Source: a virus (taxonomy: Duplodnaviria; Caudoviricetes). Taken from it: a stretch of 33,196 bases of DNA. Shown one piece after another: positions 5,544 through 16,213 of the stretch. The notes under the pieces are model-generated. The model was not told the DNA's origin, ran no database searches, and worked only from the letters and a program-made list of their open reading frames with translations. Where the stretch lies: the IMG/VR virus record IMGVR_UViG_3300020045_002688, positions 1 through 33,196 of that record; one strand, given 5' to 3'. Position 1 is the first letter of the stretch. Each line of letters opens with the position of its first letter. The translations under genes were made by a program, and so were the position numbers.

Positions 5544-6068
5544 ATGATAGTAGGATTTATCGGTTTTCAAAGGGTCGGGAAAACAACAGCTAGCAATTAT
5601 TTAATTGAAAAGTATGGCTTTGTGCGTCACAACATGAAGGATGCACTTGTGGCTGAGATTAAACAGAACTTTCCTGACTTGCTGCAACAGTTAGCCAATG
5701 AAGAAAACATAACCATTGACCAACTATTCGAAATGAAGCCACCCCTCATGCGAGCCTTACTCCAAAACTACGGTACAGAGGTACGACGAAGGGACAACGA
5801 TAATTATTGGGTTGAACAGTGGGCAAAAAAACTAACAACTAAAGACACTGTCGTGGACGATGTGCGCTTCTTGAATGAAGCACAAATGGTAAGGAACTAC
5901 CACGGCATCCTAATACGCCTAACCCGCCCAGACATCACAACAGGTGGAGAACACAAGAGCGAAACAGAACAGCTAGAGATAGAGGCAGACTACACTATCG
6001 AGTGTAAACCTGGGGAACACGAAGCATTATATAAACAACTGGACGAGATAGTGAACAGCGTGGTATAA
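5544..6068 (+). CDS. deoxynucleoside monophosphate kinase (T4 gp1-like)
   Basis: GFQRVGKTT, RALLQNYGTEVRR, DDVRFLNE, HKSE. Confidence 0.9.
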   Translation: MIVGFIGFQRVGKTTASNYLIEKYGFVRHNMKDALVAEIKQNFPDLLQQLANEENITIDQLFEMKPPLMRALLQNYGTEVRRRDNDNYWVEQWAKKLTTKDTVVDDVRFLNEAQMVRNYHGILIRLTRPDITTGGEHKSETEQLEIEADYTIECKPGEHEALYKQLDEIVNSVV

Positions 6069-6073
6069 TAGCG

Positions 6074-6263
6074 GCAGACTTACCTCCAGTTCTTAAAAGG
6101 TTCCACTTTCTTGATAACAGCCCCTTTAGCTATTCGCAAGATAGAGAGAGTGGTCAATACCAGCAAAGGCTTTAAGCTCCTGTAGTTTTGTTTCATACTT
6201 TCTTATATCCCACCCCAACCTTTTGAAACTACTGCGAGCCTACACATCTTCGAAGGTGTGGCT
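6074..6263 (+). ncRNA. candidate structured sRNA of about 190 nt
   Basis: TGGTATAAT 6061-6069; stems 6088-6102/6217-6230 and 6103-6111/6145-6153; hairpin 6237-6263; G-U pairs all favour the plus strand. Confidence 0.6.
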
Positions 6264-6288
6264 GGTACAATATAAATAATTTCAAAAA

Positions 6289-7278
6289 ATGAAAAGAATA
6301 CTAATAACAGGCGGAGCAGGATTTGTTGGACACCACTTTGTAGAATCTTTTATTAAGAACACCGATTACCATATTGTCATTCTCGACCGCCTTAACTATT
6401 CTGGCTCAGTAGATAGGTTGCGAGACATCAAAGCTTTTGACGAAAACCGTGTTACTCTCTTGACCGCGGACTTTACTCTCCCTGTTGAAGAGAATCTTGC
6501 TAAAGAAATTGGAAATGTGGACTATGTCTTGCACATTGGCGCTGAAAGCCACGTCGATAACTCAATTACTGACCCGCTCAAGTTTGTCCGAGCAAACGTA
6601 GAAGGTACAGCACACATGCTTAACTTTGCACGCACTATAACTAACCTCAAGTGCTTTTACTACTTTTCAACAGACGAAGTATTCGGCTCTAAAGATGAAG
6701 GCTTTTCAGAAGTCGGAGACCCACACTATCCATCAAACCCATACGCTGCCTCAAAGTCTGGTGGCGAAATGCTTATTCATGCTTACCGCAGAACTTATGG
6801 ACTACCTTGTGTGATTACGCGGTCAATGAATATTATCGGAGAGCGACAGCATCCAGAAAAGTATATACCTCTTGTGGTTCGTAAGGTAATAAACGGAGAG
6901 ACTGTTACCATCCACTCACATCCAGATAAAACAAAAGCTGGCTCTCGTTTTTACATCCATGCTCGCAACGTCGCAGATGGGTATCTACACCTGATTAAAA
7001 ATCAAATCCATGACGGTGAGTATCACATCACTGGAGAACAAGAAGTGGACAACTTTGAACTTGCCCAGATGATTGCAGAGATAATTGGCAAGCCACTGCA
7101 CTATGAGATGGTGGACTTCCATTCTAGTAGACCTGGACACGACCTACGCTATGCCTTGTCTCCAAAGAGTATGACCGATGTGGGGTGGACTACTCCGCTG
7201 ACCTTCAAAGAATCACTAGAGCGAACTATCAAATGGACACTAGAGCGACCAGAGTGGTATGAGAATCCTACTAGCTAA
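6289..7278 (+). CDS. rmlB: dTDP-glucose 4,6-dehydratase-like NAD-dependent epimerase/dehydratase
   Basis: GGAGFVG, AESHVDNS, STDEV, YAASK, RPGHDLRY. Confidence 0.9.
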   Translation: MKRILITGGAGFVGHHFVESFIKNTDYHIVILDRLNYSGSVDRLRDIKAFDENRVTLLTADFTLPVEENLAKEIGNVDYVLHIGAESHVDNSITDPLKFVRANVEGTAHMLNFARTITNLKCFYYFSTDEVFGSKDEGFSEVGDPHYPSNPYAASKSGGEMLIHAYRRTYGLPCVITRSMNIIGERQHPEKYIPLVVRKVINGETVTIHSHPDKTKAGSRFYIHARNVADGYLHLIKNQIHDGEYHITGEQEVDNFELAQMIAEIIGKPLHYEMVDFHSSRPGHDLRYALSPKSMTDVGWTTPLTFKESLERTIKWTLERPEWYENPTS

Positions 7279-8071
7279 CTACATTCTTGGTGGACAGACC
7301 GGCTCTGAAACGTGGGTAGCCTCACTCAAGGAGCAGCTAGAGACTAAGGGACACCAAGTCTATACGCGAACACCTCAACAAAATATTGACTTCACCCCAG
7401 ACCTTGCCATCATCAATCACAACACATGCTTACATGCTTTCAGACATCTACAGTGCAAAAAAATATTTACTTCTCACGGAGTAATACCAGACCTAGAACA
7501 ACCAGTAGAGGGAGCAGATGTGTACGTTTCTGTAAGTGAAGAAGTACAAGCCAACCTTAAAGACAAAGGTTTTGAAAGTGTAATAATAAGAAACGGCATA
7601 GATTGCCAATACTTCAAAAGTACAGAGCCAGTCAACCAAGAACTAAAGCGTGTCCTCTTCTCATCTAACTATGGAGGCACAGCTAGACTTAAAGTAAAAC
7701 TAGCCTGTGAAGAGTTGGGAATTCAGTTTGAAACAATCGGTGGAATACATAAAACCAAGAACGTACTGGAGGCAATCAATCGTGCTGACCTTGTTGTGGG
7801 GCTGGGCCGGACAGCGTATGAAGCTATGGCTTGTGAACGCAACGTGCTTGTCTATGACTACAATGGAGGAGATGGAGTTGCTACACTAGATACCCTTCCC
7901 CAATATAGACAAAACAACTGCTCCGGTAGATATAACAGACATGACTACTCAGTGGAAGATATAAAGAACCTGCTAAAACAATACAACCCAAAGTTAGGTA
8001 AGCATTTAAGAGGCTACATTATCGAGAACAACAATATGGAGAAAGTCGCAGACGAGTACCTAGAGTTGTGA
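7259..8071 (+). CDS. glycosyltransferase (GT-B, GT4-like)
   Basis: GSETW, SHG, VSVSE, IRNGID, GRTAYEAMAC. Confidence 0.85.
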   Translation: MRILLANYILGGQTGSETWVASLKEQLETKGHQVYTRTPQQNIDFTPDLAIINHNTCLHAFRHLQCKKIFTSHGVIPDLEQPVEGADVYVSVSEEVQANLKDKGFESVIIRNGIDCQYFKSTEPVNQELKRVLFSSNYGGTARLKVKLACEELGIQFETIGGIHKTKNVLEAINRADLVVGLGRTAYEAMACERNVLVYDYNGGDGVATLDTLPQYRQNNCSGRYNRHDYSVEDIKNLLKQYNPKLGKHLRGYIIENNNMEKVADEYLEL

Positions 8072-8233: not shown

Positions 8234-8656
8234 ATGGCTCAAGGTAAAGAATGGAAACCAGAAGAACGCGAAACAATTATTCAAAGTTTGAAAGAGTATC
8301 TCGAACTTGGTTTTAGTCGAAACAAAGCTTGTGCCTTCATAGGTTTGGCACCAGCAACGCTATCAAATTGGGTAAAAGAGGACGAAGCACTTGGAATGAG
8401 ATTGACTGGATGGGAAAACGCCATGAATAAGCTTGCTATGGCTAATCTTAGAGATGCTATGATGAAGGAAGGCGAGATGGATGACAATCGTAAGGACACT
8501 TCTAAATGGTGGGCTGAACGTAAGATGAAAGATGATGGATTTAGTACAAAAGTAGAACAAACTGTGACCGATACTGAGGGGAACACCGTGACTCCAATGC
8601 TTGTAAAGTTTATAACAGATGGAAAAACCAGCGACAATAGTAGAGATACCGATTGA
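8234..8656 (+). CDS. terS: terminase small subunit
   Basis: HTH (SRNKACAFIGLAPATLSNW), KWWAERK, position before TerL. Confidence 0.8.
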   Translation: MAQGKEWKPEERETIIQSLKEYLELGFSRNKACAFIGLAPATLSNWVKEDEALGMRLTGWENAMNKLAMANLRDAMMKEGEMDDNRKDTSKWWAERKMKDDGFSTKVEQTVTDTEGNTVTPMLVKFITDGKTSDNSRDTD

Positions 8657-9848
8657 GTTTAAACGACTCTTTGACCGTGACTGGCGTGAAGCTGCGGTCT
8701 ATGGCGGTAGATACTCAATGAAGTCACACACGGTGGCTCGTTTCCTTTTAATACGAGGGAGACAAGAAAAGATTAGAGTAGGTTGCTTCCGTGAGTTTCA
8801 AAACTCTATCAGTGAATCATCCCACCAGCTGCTCTCTGACCTTATTGTGTTCTATGGACTGTATGACTACAAAGTAACAGACAAGAGTATTGTAAATGAA
8901 AAGACTGGCTCTGACTTTCTTTTCAAAGGACTCCGCAACAACGCACAGTCTATTAAATCTATTGAAGGTATCGACATCGCGTGGGTAGAAGAAGCACAAA
9001 CTATCTCCAAAGAATCTATCGACATCCTTACCCCGACTATTCGTAAGCCCGGCTCTCAGATTGTTTACACATACAACCGCCTTCTTGAAGACGACCCCGT
9101 ACACCAACGCCTCGTCATTGAGGGTAGACCAAATACCCTCATCATCAATGTGAACTACGACATCGCATTAAAGTACAACTTCATGCCGGACGTTATTCGT
9201 AACGAGATGCAAGACGACAAGGATAATCGACCATCACTCTACAAGCATAAGTGGCTCGGTGAACCGTCAAGCATGGAGCGCAAGATTTACAAAGACTGGC
9301 GCTTCCTTGATGAGATACCTCATGAAGCACGGCTGGAGAAGTATGCGTTAGACTTCGGCTATACTAACGACCCCACTGCTATAGTTGCTATCTATTACTA
9401 CAACGGCGGGTATATCCTCGATGAAGTGGTGTACCAAAAGGGACTCAGTAATAAACAGATTGCTGACATCATGAACAGTCTTCCTCAAGCACACGTTGTG
9501 GCCGACAGTGCTGAACCAAAGAGTATCGACGAGCTTAGACTACACGGCATCACCGTACTTCCGGCCCAGAAGGGTAAGGACTCTGTGCGACAAGGTATTC
9601 AGTTCCTACAACGCCAAAAAATAAGTGTCACTAATCGTTCCTTCAATATCATCAACGAGTATAAGAAATACTTATGGCTTGAAGATAGGAATGGTAGAAT
9701 TATCAACGAACCACAAGACCTTGATAACCACGCTATGGATGCAATTAGGTACGGCTTTGAAGGGATGAGACCAAAAGAGAACGATGTTAAAAGAATGACG
9801 CGCGTTCACATGGCACGCAAGCATAACAATTCACCTAGAGCTTTATAA
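8619..9848 (+). CDS. terL: terminase large subunit (PBSX/SPP1-like)
   Basis: YGGRYSMKS, WVEEA, DFGYTNDP, DSAEP, NHAMDAIRY. Confidence 0.95.
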   Translation: MEKPATIVEIPIEFKRLFDRDWREAAVYGGRYSMKSHTVARFLLIRGRQEKIRVGCFREFQNSISESSHQLLSDLIVFYGLYDYKVTDKSIVNEKTGSDFLFKGLRNNAQSIKSIEGIDIAWVEEAQTISKESIDILTPTIRKPGSQIVYTYNRLLEDDPVHQRLVIEGRPNTLIINVNYDIALKYNFMPDVIRNEMQDDKDNRPSLYKHKWLGEPSSMERKIYKDWRFLDEIPHEARLEKYALDFGYTNDPTAIVAIYYYNGGYILDEVVYQKGLSNKQIADIMNSLPQAHVVADSAEPKSIDELRLHGITVLPAQKGKDSVRQGIQFLQRQKISVTNRSFNIINEYKKYLWLEDRNGRIINEPQDLDNHAMDAIRYGFEGMRPKENDVKRMTRVHMARKHNNSPRAL

Positions 9849-9849
9849 T

Positions 9850-9996
9850 ATGGAAGACTTAACAATCAACGAGAAGAAGATAGTGCTCATGCTGCGTACA
9901 CTACAGGCGCACGAACGTCTTGAAATCATGGCAGACCAAAAAGGAAGACGAGACTACTACATTGTGACAAAGACCTTGCGCGAAATACTGGCGTAA
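9850..9996 (+). CDS. 48-aa protein (MEDLTINEKKIVLMLRTLQAHERLEIMADQKGRRDYYIV...), DUF2292/YezD-like by pattern
   Basis: Fills the TerL-to-promoter gap exactly; family assignment from memory only. Confidence 0.65.
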   Translation: MEDLTINEKKIVLMLRTLQAHERLEIMADQKGRRDYYIVTKTLREILA

Positions 9997-10057
9997 CGTG
10001 GTATAATAAATACATCCGAAAAACGGACACCCCAAAAAGGGTTGTTCGTTATTTTTT
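9995..10057 (+). promoter_or_regulatory. promoter plus attenuator, copy 1
   Basis: AACGTGGTATAATA, CCGAAAAACGG 10016-10026, terminator 10022-10050 plus T6. Confidence 0.75.
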
Positions 10058-10063
10058 ATCTAT

Positions 10064-11821
10064 ATGGAAATCGTCAAAGAAATTAAAACAATTAAAGAGA
10101 ATTACGAAGGTTCCACCATTGACATTGTCGATGGTCTTCCTTATTCCCAATACCAGACGCTCCGCAAAGTTGAGTTCTACACTAACTCTCGTTACCTAAA
10201 CGGCAATACAGATATCCGTAATCGTATCAAGCCGTTCTACAACATCATTAACTTCCGCATCAATGTGGCAGTTCGTGCTACTGACTTTGATACCAAAGAC
10301 TTCCAGGTGTATTCAGAGAATCCAAAGCACTACATCAAGTCAATGATGTTTGGGAAGGAGATGAAGAACTGGATGAAGCGCACAAACTTCGCTGCCGTTA
10401 TCAACGAGTTTGGTCAAGTGCGACCTAAGTACGGAGGTGTCGTAATTAAGCGTGTCAAGAAAGAAGGTGAACTCTACATTCAAATCCCTGAATGGAAGAA
10501 CCTTCTCACCGACCCTGTAGACATTGAAAACGGTGTCATCGCAGAGCGTCACTTCATGACTCCTGTACAGATTCAGTCCAAGATGGGTGTCTGGAACAAC
10601 CTCGCAGATAATTACGAAGAGGTGGAAAAGGTATTTAAGAAATCATATGGCAAGGGCTACAGTACTGGCGACCGTGTGTGCGTCCTTGAGGTCGAAGGTG
10701 AGTTTGAAAAGGAATACGTCACAGAGAACGATAGTGATGAAAAGTACTCTCTACAACGCCACTTCTTACTCCTTGACCACGATGACAACCCTACAACTTG
10801 CCTCCACTCAGAAGAAAAGAGTAGCCGTGACTACATGTACCTACCATGGCTCAAAGCTTCTGGTCGCGCTCTTGGTATTGGTGTAGCCGAAGACGGCTTT
10901 GAGGCGCAGTATGCTGTCAACGACACTTTGCTTAAAGAGATGGACATTATGGAGATTGCGGCCCGTACCGTCTTCTGGACAGATGCTTCGACAGTAGAGA
11001 ACAACCTACTTGAAGACCTGGAGACTGGAGACATCCTCAAGGTAAATCCAGGCGAGACAATGCAAGTACTAAACAGTACACCAACCTCACTCCCCCAACT
11101 CGATAACATCCGCACCAAGTGGGATGAGCAGTACAGTAGAGCAACTTCGACATTTGAAGCTGTTACAGGCGAAACTATGCCCTCTGGGACACCTTTCCGC
11201 GCGATTGCTATCCAGAACCAAGAGAGCACAGCGATGTTCCAATACCGTATGGAAGAGGCTGGCATCTTCTGGCGTAAGGTTTTCTCTGATTGGATTGTTC
11301 CCCACTTAAAGGGCAAACTCTCACGAGAGCACATCCTTGCTTCTGATTTCACCGCTGAGGAACTACAAGTTATTGACGAAGCACTGGCTACAGACACAGC
11401 CAACAAGAAGGTGATTGAAAAGGCAATTGCCGGTAAAGTCACCACAACAGACGACTACAACAAGCTATTAGATGCTGAGAAGGAACTTTTAAATGTGAAC
11501 AAAGCGGTTCGATACCTCACTATCCCTAAAGATTACTTTAAAGACCTCGAAGCACAGATTGACATTAACATCACAGGCGAACAGCTCAATAAAGGAGTTA
11601 TGTTTGAAAGCATCAACAACATGCTTGTTACGATTTCTAACAGCTTCAATCCTCAGACTGGTTCATTTGCCATCCTCGAAGACCCTGTACTGTCTAAGAT
11701 ATTTGGTAAGGCGGTCGAGATGGCTGGCATTGGCATCTCTCCAGCTGAGTTAGTACAACGCAAGCCCAAGGAACCACAAATGCAAATGCCACAAGAAGCA
11801 CCTCAAATGACACAAGCATAG
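10064..11821 (+). CDS. portal protein
   Basis: 585 aa after TerL; FYNII, GIGVAE, VTGE motifs of podovirus portals. Confidence 0.85.
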   Translation: MEIVKEIKTIKENYEGSTIDIVDGLPYSQYQTLRKVEFYTNSRYLNGNTDIRNRIKPFYNIINFRINVAVRATDFDTKDFQVYSENPKHYIKSMMFGKEMKNWMKRTNFAAVINEFGQVRPKYGGVVIKRVKKEGELYIQIPEWKNLLTDPVDIENGVIAERHFMTPVQIQSKMGVWNNLADNYEEVEKVFKKSYGKGYSTGDRVCVLEVEGEFEKEYVTENDSDEKYSLQRHFLLLDHDDNPTTCLHSEEKSSRDYMYLPWLKASGRALGIGVAEDGFEAQYAVNDTLLKEMDIMEIAARTVFWTDASTVENNLLEDLETGDILKVNPGETMQVLNSTPTSLPQLDNIRTKWDEQYSRATSTFEAVTGETMPSGTPFRAIAIQNQESTAMFQYRMEEAGIFWRKVFSDWIVPHLKGKLSREHILASDFTAEELQVIDEALATDTANKKVIEKAIAGKVTTTDDYNKLLDAEKELLNVNKAVRYLTIPKDYFKDLEAQIDINITGEQLNKGVMFESINNMLVTISNSFNPQTGSFAILEDPVLSKIFGKAVEMAGIGISPAELVQRKPKEPQMQMPQEAPQMTQA

Positions 11822-11823
11822 TT

Positions 11824-12051
11824 ATGAATGACGAACTACTAAAACAATTCTACTCAAGCGAACACATGCGTGTGGAGGTCTACAAGTTCTTTAAAGCCAC
11901 CCTAGATGAGATTGCTCTCGAACGGGTCTACAAAGGACAAGACACCAAAGGTATCGCAGACGCAAAAGAAGTGCTAGTCAAAGCAGAAGCAAAGCTTCAA
12001 AACAAGTTCACCGTAGGACGTAATGTCAAAGACGGTCAACGCGCACTCTAA
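11824..12051 (+). CDS. small head-module protein
   Basis: Helical 75-aa ORF between portal and scaffold. Confidence 0.7.
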   Translation: MNDELLKQFYSSEHMRVEVYKFFKATLDEIALERVYKGQDTKGIADAKEVLVKAEAKLQNKFTVGRNVKDGQRAL

Positions 12052-12108
12052 AATCTCGGTTAGCAACTCCGTCCAAAAGTTGGTACCAATTTAATCTAGC
12101 CCATCACT

Positions 12109-12594
12109 ATGTTCAATGATGAAACACAAGAAGATGTAACTTTGGAAAATAACATCGAAGACAATCAGGAAGAAGTAGACGCTGAGGAATCAGCAGACGA
12201 AACTAACTGGGAGTCAGAAGCGAAGAAGTGGCGTGCTATAGCTGAACGCAAAGCGAAGAAGCTTGAATCACCCGCACCGAAGCAACCCAAAGCAGAATCA
12301 AACGGAACTCTTACAGAAGACGATATTCTTGTCATCACTACCATCCAAGATAAGGAACTCATTAATACCGCGCGAGAGATTGCAAAGTTGAAGGGAGTGA
12401 CCTTAGCTGAGGCGGCAGAATCTACAATGTTCAAGCTTGCAAAGGCTGAACGTGAGGATAACATCCGACAAGAAAAAGTGTCTATGGAAGCGTCCCGCGG
12501 TTCTGCAAACCGTGGCAAGAAGAAAGATTTTAAAACATCAGGACTATCCCCAGCTGAACACAAAGAACTCTGGAAGAGCAGAACTGGTCGCTAA
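12109..12594 (+). CDS. scaffolding protein
   Basis: Acidic N-terminus, coiled coil, directly before the capsid gene. Confidence 0.75.
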   Translation: MFNDETQEDVTLENNIEDNQEEVDAEESADETNWESEAKKWRAIAERKAKKLESPAPKQPKAESNGTLTEDDILVITTIQDKELINTAREIAKLKGVTLAEAAESTMFKLAKAEREDNIRQEKVSMEASRGSANRGKKKDFKTSGLSPAEHKELWKSRTGR

Positions 12595-12637
12595 ACACTC
12601 TCCTTGTCATGTTTAAGAACATTAAAACTAATTAAAT

Positions 12638-13546
12638 ATGGCTTTAGGTACAAACGGCTACACATTTGCCGACCTCGACGTAAACATCCCAGAAGTATGG
12701 GGTGAACAAATCAACGATTACTTCCGATACAGTCTCAAGCTCGCTCCTTTCTTCATTGACCGTAGTGATGAGCTTACAGACGGAGGTGACTCAATCTACA
12801 CTCCAAACCTTTCTGCACTTACTGTGTCTACAAAGACCAATAACGCAGAAGTAACCCTTTCATCACCTACATACACAACTCAAACACTTGTGGTGTCTAC
12901 ATGGAAGGAATCATCTTTCGTTATCGAAGACCGTGAAATGGCTCAACTTAAGAAGAGTTACTACCTACAGACTAAGATTGCAGAAGGTGGCGCATACGAA
13001 GTTGCACAAGACCTTGACGATGCTATCGCAGCTCTTTTCTCAGGTTTCTCAACCTCAGTAGGTGCTTCAAATACAAACCTTGCAGATTCTAACCTCCTCG
13101 CTGCTATCGCAACACTCGAAGCCGCTGGTGTACCAGGAATCTACACAGGTGAAGTTTCATTCATCCTCCACCCTAATACCTTCTACCGACAGATTGGTAT
13201 TATCGACAAGTTCACACTATGGCAAAACACTAAGAGTGAGGAACCTCGCATGAAGGCCCCAACTCCAATGCTTTACGGAATCCCTGTTATCGTTACTCCG
13301 GCCGTTGGTGTTACTCTTGGTTCACGTAACAACGTGCTTGCGCACAAGGACGCTATCCACTGGGCTCGTCTCTCAATGCCAGCTAAGGCTGCTATGGGTT
13401 ACGTTGGTTCAGAAGGAGTCCGTGTACAGCAATCATACGTTCACGAATACCTTGGGGAACTCGTTACCATCGACCTCTGTTACGGAGTCGTGGAAAACCG
13501 AGACAACGCAGCTGTGTTGCTCAAGTCTATCCAGACCGTTGCATAG
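12638..13546 (+). CDS. major capsid protein (HK97 fold, P22-coat-like)
   Basis: IPEVW, GDSIYTP, LYGIPV, DLCYGV; terminator follows. Confidence 0.9.
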   Translation: MALGTNGYTFADLDVNIPEVWGEQINDYFRYSLKLAPFFIDRSDELTDGGDSIYTPNLSALTVSTKTNNAEVTLSSPTYTTQTLVVSTWKESSFVIEDREMAQLKKSYYLQTKIAEGGAYEVAQDLDDAIAALFSGFSTSVGASNTNLADSNLLAAIATLEAAGVPGIYTGEVSFILHPNTFYRQIGIIDKFTLWQNTKSEEPRMKAPTPMLYGIPVIVTPAVGVTLGSRNNVLAHKDAIHWARLSMPAKAAMGYVGSEGVRVQQSYVHEYLGELVTIDLCYGVVENRDNAAVLLKSIQTVA

Positions 13547-13567
13547 TTATACACATAGCTACGAATC

Positions 13568-13589
13568 AAGCCCTTCACGGGGCTTTTTT
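13568..13589 (+). terminator. intrinsic terminator after capsid
   Basis: AAGCCCT-TCAC-GGGGCTT plus T run. Confidence 0.85.
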
Positions 13590-13607
13590 CGTGTTATAAT
13601 CTTTTAT

Positions 13608-13934
13608 ATGGCAAATACTCAAGTAGGAAAACTACACAAGAAGACGATTGTTAGAGGATTAGATGGTGGCATCAGAGACATGCGTGATGAAGCTAATGGT
13701 GGCTGGATTGTGCGCGGCGGTTCTGTAGTTAATCAAGAACGCTGGAACGATTATTTAAAAGCTCTTAAAGATAAGGAGGACTCTGCGAAGGCATTTGCTG
13801 AACCGAAGATTCGTCAAGATTACCCTGAGACAAAAGATGGCATCGCTGAATCATCACGAGTCGATAAACTTGAAGAGAAAGTTGAAGCTTTGGACTCAAA
13901 GCTAGACGCAATCCTAAAAGCCGTATCAAAATGA
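13608..13934 (+). CDS. hypothetical protein with C-terminal coiled coil, leaderless
   Basis: ATG 7 nt after TGTTATAAT (13592-13600); ATGA-coupled to the next gene. Confidence 0.75.
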   Translation: MANTQVGKLHKKTIVRGLDGGIRDMRDEANGGWIVRGGSVVNQERWNDYLKALKDKEDSAKAFAEPKIRQDYPETKDGIAESSRVDKLEEKVEALDSKLDAILKAVSK

Positions 13935-14998
13935 TAAAGATATTCTTCCTGCCAGGAGCCTATGACGGCTGTTACTACTACCGCGGATATATGCCAGCCA
14001 TCTACGGCAAGATGACTTGCGTAACAGACTTTTTAGGTGGTGGATGGGATAGGGATGAAATGATGAAGCGAGCCATGGAGTCTGATGTTATCGTCTTTCA
14101 GCGACCCAATGACGGCTACCGAGTCGAGCTGATGAAGCTTCTCAAGCAGAAGGGTAAGTTCATCGTCTTTGAAAATGATGACACGTACTTACCTGACAAG
14201 GGAGTACCACTCAATATGCTTGGAAGTGATAAGGCTCGCGCTCTAGCAATCCACTTGAGTGACAATCTAAACGAAGGGCTAAAGATTGCAGACCTAGTTA
14301 TCGCATCGACTCAGACACTCGCTGAGGAGTACCGAGAAACCGCTACATGCCCCGTGGTAGTGCGTAAGAATACGATTGACCCACTAGACGCATGGCCCCG
14401 GAAAACCCCGGCTGGAAGAATGCGGATAGGCTTTATCGGTTCCGTATCATCCAATGACGACTACACCCACATCGCTGATACCATTCGCTGGTTGGATAAG
14501 AATGAAAAGGTGACGTTCGTGGTGTTGGGACATAAGCGACACCACGAAGACTATAAAGGATACGAGAAGGACGATGAATTCTGGGATACGATAAAGAATG
14601 TTGAATGGCATGACTTCGTACCAGCCACGAGATACCATAAGAAGCTGGCAGAGATGCAACTACACATCGCCTTGATTCCTCGAAAAGATAATTACTTCAA
14701 TCGCTGTAAGTCAAACATAAAGTTCCTAGAAAGTGCTTTACAGAAAATCCCAGTTATTGCACAAGGATTCACCACAAAAGATAGTCCGTATCAGTTCGGA
14801 AAAGACAAGAAGTACATGCAAGTAGTGACCAGAGACGAGGACTGGTTGCCAACAATATTAAACACCATAAATGACTACCCCAAGTATGCTACACTAGCTG
14901 AAAAGGCGCACGATTACGTGCTAGAGGAATACAACATTAGAAATTACGCCAAGGAATGGCGACAAATAATTGAACAACACTATGAAAATCGAAAATGA
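13931..14998 (+). CDS. glycosyltransferase (GT-B)
   Basis: GCYYYR, VFQR, ENDD, IGFIGS, FNRCKSNIKFLE. Confidence 0.85.
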   Translation: MIKIFFLPGAYDGCYYYRGYMPAIYGKMTCVTDFLGGGWDRDEMMKRAMESDVIVFQRPNDGYRVELMKLLKQKGKFIVFENDDTYLPDKGVPLNMLGSDKARALAIHLSDNLNEGLKIADLVIASTQTLAEEYRETATCPVVVRKNTIDPLDAWPRKTPAGRMRIGFIGSVSSNDDYTHIADTIRWLDKNEKVTFVVLGHKRHHEDYKGYEKDDEFWDTIKNVEWHDFVPATRYHKKLAEMQLHIALIPRKDNYFNRCKSNIKFLESALQKIPVIAQGFTTKDSPYQFGKDKKYMQVVTRDEDWLPTILNTINDYPKYATLAEKAHDYVLEEYNIRNYAKEWRQIIEQHYENRK

Positions 14999-15407
14999 AC
15001 TACTCAAGGAAGAGAACTACTCAAACCCACGCTTGATTGAGATTACAAATGAAGAAGTGGGCGCACTCTACGAGCAAATCAAGGTACATCAAACAAACGT
15101 AAATCCTTTTCTTACCCGCTTTGAGGAGATTGAAGCTAAGAAGATTGAACTAAAAGCACCGTTTGACGAATACGTTAAAGAGACAAAGCAAGAGCTTGAA
15201 GATATGATGGAAAAGATGCAGTCAGAAGACCAGATGGCATCGAAGATTAAAGAAAAGCTTGTACCACTCGTGGAAGATGAGGTTATGCCACATCTTGGCG
15301 AACTGGATGAGTTCGTGGGTCTTGAAAAGATTGACGGCAAGTACTACGCTAAAGTAAATGACCGTATCGAAGAATGGGTGAAGTCAATTCGCTCTGCAAA
15401 GAAGTAA
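14982..15407 (+). CDS. coiled-coil hypothetical protein
   Basis: E/K-rich helical ORF overlapping the GT end. Confidence 0.7.
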   Translation: MKIENELLKEENYSNPRLIEITNEEVGALYEQIKVHQTNVNPFLTRFEEIEAKKIELKAPFDEYVKETKQELEDMMEKMQSEDQMASKIKEKLVPLVEDEVMPHLGELDEFVGLEKIDGKYYAKVNDRIEEWVKSIRSAKK

Positions 15408-15468
15408 ACGTGGTATAATAGATGTACCGAAAAACGGCAAGAGTAATGGCTCTTGTCGTTTTCTATTT
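15407..15468 (+). promoter_or_regulatory. promoter plus attenuator, copy 2
   Basis: AACGTGGTATAATA, CCGAAAAACGG 15427-15437, terminator 15431-15462. Confidence 0.75.
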
Positions 15469-15472
15469 ATAT

Positions 15473-16213
15473 ATGCAATTTAATGACACATCAGCTGCGA
15501 AGAATGGCCTTATCCAAGAGTGCGAAACATGGCTTTTTGGTAGTAATTACGGCGCTATCTCAGGCAGTGCTAATGTCTTAGCTACATTCACTCGATTACT
15601 AAATAATGGGCTTGATGAGGTATCAGGACTAGTCATGTCTGTCGATGGACGCTGGCAGTATGACGATAGTAACTTCACTGACTTTCCTATTGCTACCACA
15701 AACCTCGTTGTCTCACAGCAAGATTACCAGCTTTCTGTTTCTCACATCAAAATTCTCGGTGTAGAGATTAAGGACAATAATGGAGATTGGTATGCCCTCG
15801 CTCAGATTGACCAGCAAGAAATACGCCGTGCTGGACACGCATTAACCGAGTTCATGGATGAAGATGGGCGGCCTCAATACTACGATGTGGTGGGCGATTC
15901 AATTAAGCTCTACCCGGCACCAGCCACTGCGAATGTCACGACCACCGCTGGCCTCAAAGTGTACTTCCAGCGAGAGCCAGACTACTTTGTGAGCGCCGAT
16001 ACAACAAAGAAGCCGGGCATCCCCTCCATCTTCCACGACATCCCTGCCCTCCATGCCTCTGCTAAGTACGCAAAGAGTAACTCGATGGCAGAAAAGGCAA
16101 GAGAGTTGGACAACGAAATTATTAAACGAAACGAAGCTTTAAAGCGTTTCTACTCAAAAAGAAACGTCGATAAGAAACCAACATTAAAAGCACGTTATAA
16201 ATCAGCAGCATAA
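15473..16213 (+). CDS. head-tail adaptor
   Basis: QQDYQL, GRPQYY, IKLYPAP, PGIPSIFH; start MQFND after the attenuator. Confidence 0.75.
   Translation: MQFNDTSAAKNGLIQECETWLFGSNYGAISGSANVLATFTRLLNNGLDEVSGLVMSVDGRWQYDDSNFTDFPIATTNLVVSQQDYQLSVSHIKILGVEIKDNNGDWYALAQIDQQEIRRAGHALTEFMDEDGRPQYYDVVGDSIKLYPAPATANVTTTAGLKVYFQREPDYFVSADTTKKPGIPSIFHDIPALHASAKYAKSNSMAEKARELDNEIIKRNEALKRFYSKRNVDKKPTLKARYKSAA

Follow-up and report, generated by a model that had tools for sequence, protein, structure and literature searches.

How a small phage that shows only host-type promoters could time its virion genes is the question raised by the Caudoviricetes record IMGVR_UViG_3300020045_002688. The window analysed is the entire record (33,196 nt, about 90% complete). 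PHROG and Pfam searches of its 45 open reading frames (ORFs) detected no sigma factor, Q, or N family members, in line with the initial annotation, which had seen no late sigma factor or Q. Two leaders in the window share one arrangement: one lies before the likely portal gene, which opens the head block, and the other before the head-tail adaptor gene, which opens the tail block (Table 1). Each contains an extended -10 promoter box and a small hairpin whose 3' arm is captured by a larger, terminator-like hairpin. The two elements are probably RNA attenuators opened by a protein of 48 amino acids (48 aa, ORF 9850), in an antitermination resembling that of BglG and its ribonucleic antiterminator (RAT), which would time the virion genes after expression of the terminase operon. 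Sequence comparison indicates that the RNA switch is real and conserved and that its candidate protein is well supported.

The duplication described in the initial annotation (extended -10 box, CCGAAAAACGG, and overlapping terminator-like hairpin) is found in both leaders beyond chance. The 11-mer CCGAAAAACGG lies at 10016-10026 and 15427-15437, 8 and 7 nt past the TATAAT hexamer; these two occurrences compare with 0.01 expected and a maximum of 1 in 300 first-order simulations of the window. GGTATAAT occurs nine times, against 0.67 expected (maximum 5, 300 simulations of the same kind). The identical 14-mer AACGTGGTATAATA reported earlier is indeed present at 9995-10008 and 15407-15420, but in each copy its first bases fall within the upstream stop codon, and just TGTGGTATAATA persists in the closest relative. 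Transcription would start near 10014 in the portal leader and near 15426 in the adaptor leader. The adaptor gene most likely begins at 15473, the start common to its relatives, and not at 15422.

Both assumed transcripts fold as the terminator-like hairpin (-14.3 kcal/mol for portal, -18.6 kcal/mol for adaptor), with AACGG pairing TCGTT beneath unrelated upper stems, which reproduces the pairing first proposed. The small hairpin can be imposed at a cost of 6.0 and 8.2 kcal/mol, respectively; the upper half of the big hairpin then still folds, yet it no longer adjoins the U-tail. In silico, the small and big hairpins are mutually exclusive. With 9 nt hidden in the polymerase, the small hairpin is predicted to dominate up to a transcript length of ~40-42 nt and then to be gone. 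The portal-leader terminator is absent from the plus-strand list of a gap-free terminator scanner, probably because its stem is bulged. A match to an already described motif, named in the initial annotation as refuting, was not seen in Rfam, whose covariance models gave 0 matches in the window at E ≤ 1 and 0 at gathering score in 10 related loci.

Relatives were collected with a 90-sequence portal alignment, which yielded 80 viral, 73 metagenome, and 9 genome loci; locus L326 (genome G360) was excluded from all analyses. After removal of duplicates (by 100-nt leader), truncated portals, and loci with <150 nt before the portal, 116 portal leaders were kept, window included. The element in these relatives consists of a 3-bp stem, an A-R-N-N-A loop, usually a second 3-bp stem, and then a U-tailed hairpin sequestering the 3' arm. 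The second stem, present in most copies, lies across a 2-by-1 internal loop or a bulged A. The small hairpin measures 11-13 nt in the window and ~20 nt in most relatives. Among 47 copies (41 distinct) the small stem takes eight forms with compensated variation: CCG/CGG (32), GAG/CTC (5), CAG/CTG (3), CTG/CAG (2), CCA/TGG (2), and CGG/CCG, TCG/CGA, and TGG/CCA (1 each). An A directly precedes the stem in 46 of the 47. The five-base loop A-R-N-N-A is found in all 47, with the caveat that the search pattern itself prescribed A1, R2, and A5; the length of the loop was observed directly. Retention of the A-run solely for pairing with the U-tail is ruled out by the loops AAGAA, AAGTA, AAGCA, and AGAGA.

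In an ungapped alignment of the 47 copies, 93% of cells are paired, compared with 33-48% in slid controls, and two-sided changes occur at all 6 stem pairs. The upper stem was in the search pattern and the lower stem was not selected for; lower stem cells comprise 107 Watson-Crick, 23 G-U, 7 A-C, and 10 other combinations. An overlap of 3-7 nt between the small and the terminator-like hairpin is predicted in 49/49 copies. The big hairpin has a mean energy of -14.3 versus -5.3 kcal/mol, and in 44 of 49 copies the 8 nt that follow it hold at least 5 T. T-rich windows (6 or more T in 8) precede 25/31 portals with ORF 9850 and 6/75 without it. A covariance model of 27 positions was weak: the window's own copies scored E ~0.1, and its top matches at DUF2292 loci (discussed below) include coding-region false positives. 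A loose pattern search of viral contigs returned mostly chance matches.

Two arguments of the initial annotation did not survive this comparison. The G-U pair common to both window copies, taken as a sign of constraint, is incidental, as the third base of the 3' arm forms G-U in 9/49 copies and G-C in 32/49. Lambda N is an arginine-rich peptide whose site combines boxA with a boxB loop that starts with G on a 5-bp stem. The suggested likeness to boxB does not hold, since the phage loop starts with A and the preceding G is a stem base (G-C in 39/41 and A-U in 2/41 distinct copies).

The element travels with ORF 9850. An iterated profile of this ORF found 41 homologues in 154 loci, each directly upstream of portal. 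Of the distinct loci, 34/35 that have the ORF and 2/81 that lack it show the small hairpin 10-70 nt ahead of portal; the two ORF-less matches of the stricter scan sit in the terminase 3' end and show no terminator overlap. In the sole ORF-bearing exception, L164, the element comes right after the ORF and an HNH-type gene is inserted before portal. An HNH-like gene between the element and the portal start was seen in L164 (L164:1771) and L238. Adaptor leaders, at least 5 kb away from the ORF, carry the element in 16/16 loci with the ORF and 0/41 without, a split at such a distance that a single linked cassette cannot explain. Locus L301, added later, has both the ORF and the element; the other 8 loci of that batch lack the ORF. 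A two-strand scan for the full element gave 40 matches across the ORF-bearing loci (0.91 Mb) and none across the others (2.38 Mb). Of the 40, 38 precede portal or adaptor; one follows the ORF before the inserted HNH-type gene and one is stray. When 32 window ORFs were compared with 115 loci, none but ORF 9850 was both confined to and common in element-bearing loci.

The initial annotation had named two candidate regulators, ORF 9850 and ORF 8086. The latter was rejected: it is found in only 1 of 34 ORF 9850 loci, 22 of which extend far enough upstream. Of the protein-dependent hairpin/terminator switch as first proposed, the core is supported by covariation, strand asymmetry, U-tails, and co-occurrence with ORF 9850, while ORF 8086, the G-U argument, and boxB drop out. 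The loop is identical in both copies of one genome in 14 of 16 genomes (3.3 expected), even where the stems differ (L186, L263); gene conversion and kinship could contribute to this sharing.

Relatives without the ORF show a different motif. TTG(C/T)GG occurs in the last 40 nt before portal in 24/81 ORF-less relatives versus 0/35 with the ORF (background 0.015 per 40 nt). These loci include L154, L159, L161, L162, L166, L175, L178, L182, L183, and L189, and one match is part of a promoter. The motif is also found in many adaptor leaders of ORF-less loci and may serve as an alternative switch in both positions.

The ATG of ORF 9850 lies one base past the terminase stop codon, so the two genes are likely co-expressed. 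Its family has 18 close homologues and 136 representatives at 50% clustering (E ≤ 0.001). Compared with L123, 19 codon changes are synonymous and 14 non-synonymous; judged by its sequence, ORF 9850 is conserved at the protein level. The AlphaFold2 model has a predicted local distance difference test score (pLDDT) of 92.5, with a helix at residues 6-16 and strands at 22-28 and 37-43. Foldseek searches of this model against the PDB and viral folds gave nothing significant (best E about 1), and neither did a VIA fold search (best Z 3.3). No match was found by sequence search of the PDB or by TBLASTN against annotated phages, and the family profile produced two weak, unconvincing hits in 301 Patescibacteria-group genomes.

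DUF2292 (PF10055) has no match in the window at E ≤ 10, in any of 28 family members, or in any of the 136 representatives at E ≤ 0.1. Profile comparison was weak (hhalign probability 57% with E 1e-4, and 28%). Cross-matches between the two families' hidden Markov models at E<0.01 numbered 1/136 and 2/33, with none in reversed controls. In the Atlas, the top named cluster of a homologue (0.78) was 25% DUF2292; the window protein gave unrelated helix-turn-helix-type leads instead. At the level of secondary structure only, both have a helix followed by a two-strand hairpin (DUF2292: helix 4-15, strands 20-27 and 30-38). The 48-aa protein is DUF2292-like without being a Pfam member, and the likeness is weak but repeated.

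A protein-held hairpin that excludes a terminator is a known logic. In BglG/SacY/LicT-RAT systems (PMC3369931, PMC12591593), a protein-stabilised stem-loop partly overlaps an intrinsic terminator and one or the other forms. The phage element is similar in that a single stem-loop partly overlaps the terminator-like hairpin in all copies. It differs from RAT, which is 29-30 nt long and read by a CAT domain under phosphotransferase system (PTS) phosphorylation, in its much shorter hairpin. The phage candidate is moreover a stand-alone 48-aa protein and its targets are virion genes. No CAT or PRD Pfam match was found among the 45 window ORFs or the 28 family members. The phage element resembles ANTAR systems (EutV, AmiR, NasR) in its overlap with a terminator, in the conservation of loop bases, and in stems of very few pairs, three at the minimum (PMC3369931). 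However, ANTAR requires two tandem hairpins with six-base loops and conserved A1 and G4, whereas one hairpin was seen in the phage, with a five-base loop and A1 and A5. A second hairpin of the ANTAR type was not seen in the alignment, to which no dedicated search was added; the window hairpin lies at the inferred start site. None of the 45 ORFs in the ~90% complete record matches the ANTAR domain. The proposed phage switch would work like BglG/RAT and ANTAR, yet it does not qualify as a member of either.

Q21 and BaGTA BrrG are late antiterminators of the processive kind that require a -10-like element. Like the proposed switch, lambda N, Q, and BrrG rely on a protein encoded by the phage to relieve termination at a point between a promoter of the host type and the phage's own genes (for BrrG, 10.1101/2024.11.20.624540); in the window, by contrast, the RNA site overlaps its own terminator and is repeated for each block. 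No published description of the element was found in the literature searched, and no published RNA-binding or antitermination role for the 48-aa family, DUF2292, DUF3954, or XtrA; most subscription journals and supplements, a frequent home of RNA-motif catalogues, were outside its scope. The terms 'DUF', 'phage', and 'small protein' do not occur in the main text of the 2025 review PMC12591593.

The architecture is not confined to these phages. The same stem/internal-loop/stem hairpin with overlapping terminator follows genes of DUF2292 (YezD/OscA-type), DUF3954 (PF13128), and PBSX XtrA (PF17356). OscA is co-transcribed with cysP (PMC3596284) and XtrA is positioned before the Xpf sigma-like gene (PMC8347963). 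In Patescibacteria-group genomes the architecture was found within 260 nt of DUF2292 in 21 of 33 loci (the best-scoring matches, genome G360 excluded) and in 0/65 control windows. A typical example reads GCT-GA-CCG-CAAA-CGG-A-GGC with an overlapping U-tailed hairpin. Loops of the host DUF2292 elements are mostly 4 nt (CAAA) and those of phage elements 5 nt. A DUF3954-linked element in provirus L144, a locus first found by the core motif, lies before a sigma-like gene and outscored the window's own copies in the covariance model (20.5 bits).

A pattern scan of viral contigs added 54 distinct new matches, 25 of them with a terminator. In these unrelated phages, the full lower stem is present in 17/25 terminator-bearing matches versus 4/29 without. 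The genes downstream of 19 terminator-bearing matches include major capsid, head protease, portal, tail protein, and three sigma-like genes. Among 17 upstream ORFs scanned, 3 match DUF3954 above the cut-off, 1 XtrA, and 1 DUF2292 below the cut-off; 12 have no match. In one unrelated phage, a 52-aa ORF (L411:1327-1482) lies 16 nt upstream of a full element and scores E 0.001 against the 48-aa family and E 0.009 against DUF2292 (small database), with hhalign at only 25%; it is a possible bridge between the two. It is conceivable, at slightly less than an even chance, that the 48-aa protein belongs with DUF2292, DUF3954, and XtrA in a single, previously undescribed superfamily of RNA-binding antiterminators, 45-70 residues long, which read a common stem/internal-loop/stem hairpin. 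In phages they would act as a late switch free of sigma factor and Q, in bacteria on their own operons, and loop sequence would set private specificity.

For the window we infer that transcription stops at the big hairpin, that the small hairpin is bound by the 48-aa protein, and that virion genes are thereby timed after terminase. A host sigma-70-type polymerase would start at the extended -10 box or arrive from upstream. The small hairpin would fold first, and the terminator would displace it ~20 nt later, leaving an aborted RNA of ~40-45 nt. Bound to the loop and the flanking A, the 48-aa protein would block the lower terminator stem, with read-through of that one terminator and transcription of the head or tail genes as the result. 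Several points weigh against this reading. The lower stem of the small hairpin is weak or absent in the window copies (-3.6 and -2.2 kcal/mol) and weak in the window's own clade, and the 100% pairing of the upper stem is partly circular because that stem was in the search pattern. The 48-aa protein is at most mildly basic (net charge between -2 and +3 in 28 family members) and has no arginine-rich stretch. Loop sharing within genomes is inflated by kinship. On the portal tree (FastTree, 107/116 loci with 9 short portals left out, element state hand-coded) there are 5 changes and just 4 independent contrasts, all concordant (p = 0.125), so Fisher p-values overstate the case. Several elements in unrelated phages have no recognisable small protein nearby. 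Finally, 5/49 copies (L152, L165, L246, L259, L262) lack a U-tail, and in four of these the big hairpin abuts the start codon.

These five copies, together with the fact that the hairpin ends 7-18 nt before the start codon in most copies, make translational gating the main rival. The big hairpin would then mask the site where ribosomes land on a gene that lacks a Shine-Dalgarno (SD) sequence, and the bound protein would free it; only 1/35 window starts has an SD-like motif. Gating of this kind remains unlikely given the U-tails kept in nearly all copies, the T-rich windows that precede portals with the ORF, and a downstream gene that in unrelated phages often lies 55-180 nt past the element. 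Transcriptional and translational effects could also act together, and the portal leaders without a U-tail provide natural material for testing translational control. A cis or host trigger is improbable. Here the fold would be shifted by a host DUF2292 protein or by a ribosome that finishes translating the small ORF, and the ORF would merely co-travel. The hairpin begins 6-7 nt past the ORF stop codon in one clade and Patescibacteria genomes encode DUF2292 with a near-identical hairpin, but the distant adaptor copy still tracks the ORF, loop lengths differ between host and phage, and the ORF is conserved as a protein.

A loading site for a processive antiterminator, acting in the manner of lambda N on further late-region terminators, has a similarly small probability. 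It would suit the promoter-proximal hairpin with its A-rich pentaloop and the further strong terminator-like site inside the head block (13568-13585). However, that site is followed by a TATAAT at 13595, the hairpin overlaps its own terminator in every copy, a processive system would not need an element before each block, and the protein lacks an arginine-rich stretch. Very improbable is a DNA operator, in which CCG-N5-CGG would bind a dimeric repressor or activator at the start site, separately from the terminator. The inverted repeat does lie just past the -10 box in the window, and a related palindrome (1564-1574) is found beside another promoter. Yet the stem is free to vary in sequence while pairing is kept, and the asymmetric loop invariably lies on the sense strand (small hairpin sense in 34/35, antisense in 0/35 ORF-bearing portal loci). 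This orientation and the preference for G-U over A-C (23 vs 7) speak for RNA rather than a DNA operator, as does a promoter that is variable or missing and that the initial annotation had treated as a fixed part: the hairpin lies 7 to 30 nt from the -10 box, and 12/34 portal copies have no -10 match within 40 nt.

The setting of the two leaders is summarised in Table 1. Of 25 homologues of the likely portal, 1 matches Pfam SU10_portal (E 9e-5, below cut-off). The host may be a member of the Patescibacteria, which often lack SD sequences. Of the 9 genome hits for portal relatives, 2 are in assemblies labelled Saccharibacteria and 1 in Parcubacteria; because the other 6 bear other or no labels, this host is an inference only.

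Table 1. Features of the two leaders and of neighbouring genes in the window
Feature	Position	Strand	Basis or remark
Terminase	8234		PHROG/Pfam scans
Terminase large subunit	8619..9848	+	PHROG and Pfam matches
48-aa ORF, candidate trans-acting hairpin-binding protein	9850..9996	+	Helix and two strands; directly after terminase large subunit
Extended -10 promoter box (TGG-TATAAT), portal leader	9999..10007	+	Sequence, enrichment over chance; putative function
Small antiterminator-type hairpin, copy 1 (CCG-AAAAA-CGG)	10015..10027	+	Extension by one U-A pair possible
Terminator-like hairpin (10022-10050) and U-rich tail, portal leader	10022..10057	+	-14.0 kcal/mol, 7 T in next 8 nt; captures 3' arm of small hairpin
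Likely portal (585 aa), candidate gated gene 1, opens head block	10064..11821	+	PHROG 332 connector, E 3e-5; position after terminase
Major capsid	12638		PHROG/Pfam scans
Extended -10 promoter box, adaptor leader	15411..15419	+	Sequence, enrichment over chance; putative function
Small antiterminator-type hairpin, copy 2	15427..15437	+	
Terminator-like hairpin (14 pairs, 15431-15462) and U-rich tail, adaptor leader	15431..15468	+	Top of terminator scan list
Head-tail adaptor, SU10-type (246 aa), candidate gated gene 2, opens tail block	15473..16213	+	Pfam SU10_adaptor, E 4e-9, above cut-off; start from relatives
Methylase, replication proteins, peptidase			PHROG/Pfam scans

Some further features of the window were recorded. 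A nucleotide-sugar epimerase and two glycosyltransferases are encoded amid the packaging and head genes (6289-8071 and 13931-14998), with homologues of gene 13931 in 60/115 relative loci; these genes possibly serve virion or DNA glycosylation. A leader of ~220 nt (6070-6288) separates the epimerase gene, first of the terminase block, from a promoter box at 6062. It has no Rfam match and may control the timing of small-protein production. The terminator-like hairpin in the head block is located 3' of the capsid gene, and the TATAAT after it is a new one (13568-13611). Several -10 boxes lie ~10-20 nt from an ATG (13568-13611, 22717, 27002), which suggests very short leaders. The inverted repeat CCCG-N5-CGGG at 1563-1575, directly upstream of an extended -10 box (1579) between divergent methylase and replication genes, is a possible DNA operator.

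If the proposed antitermination by the 48-aa protein is correct, a 48-residue protein and an 11-20-nt site would form an antitermination module much smaller than those built on the multi-domain CAT and ANTAR proteins, and naturally occurring loop variants might serve as orthogonal parts. It would explain how virion genes are timed in a small phage whose promoters are all of the host type and in which neither sigma factor nor Q was detected. It would also supply a testable function for the widespread families DUF2292, DUF3954, and XtrA.

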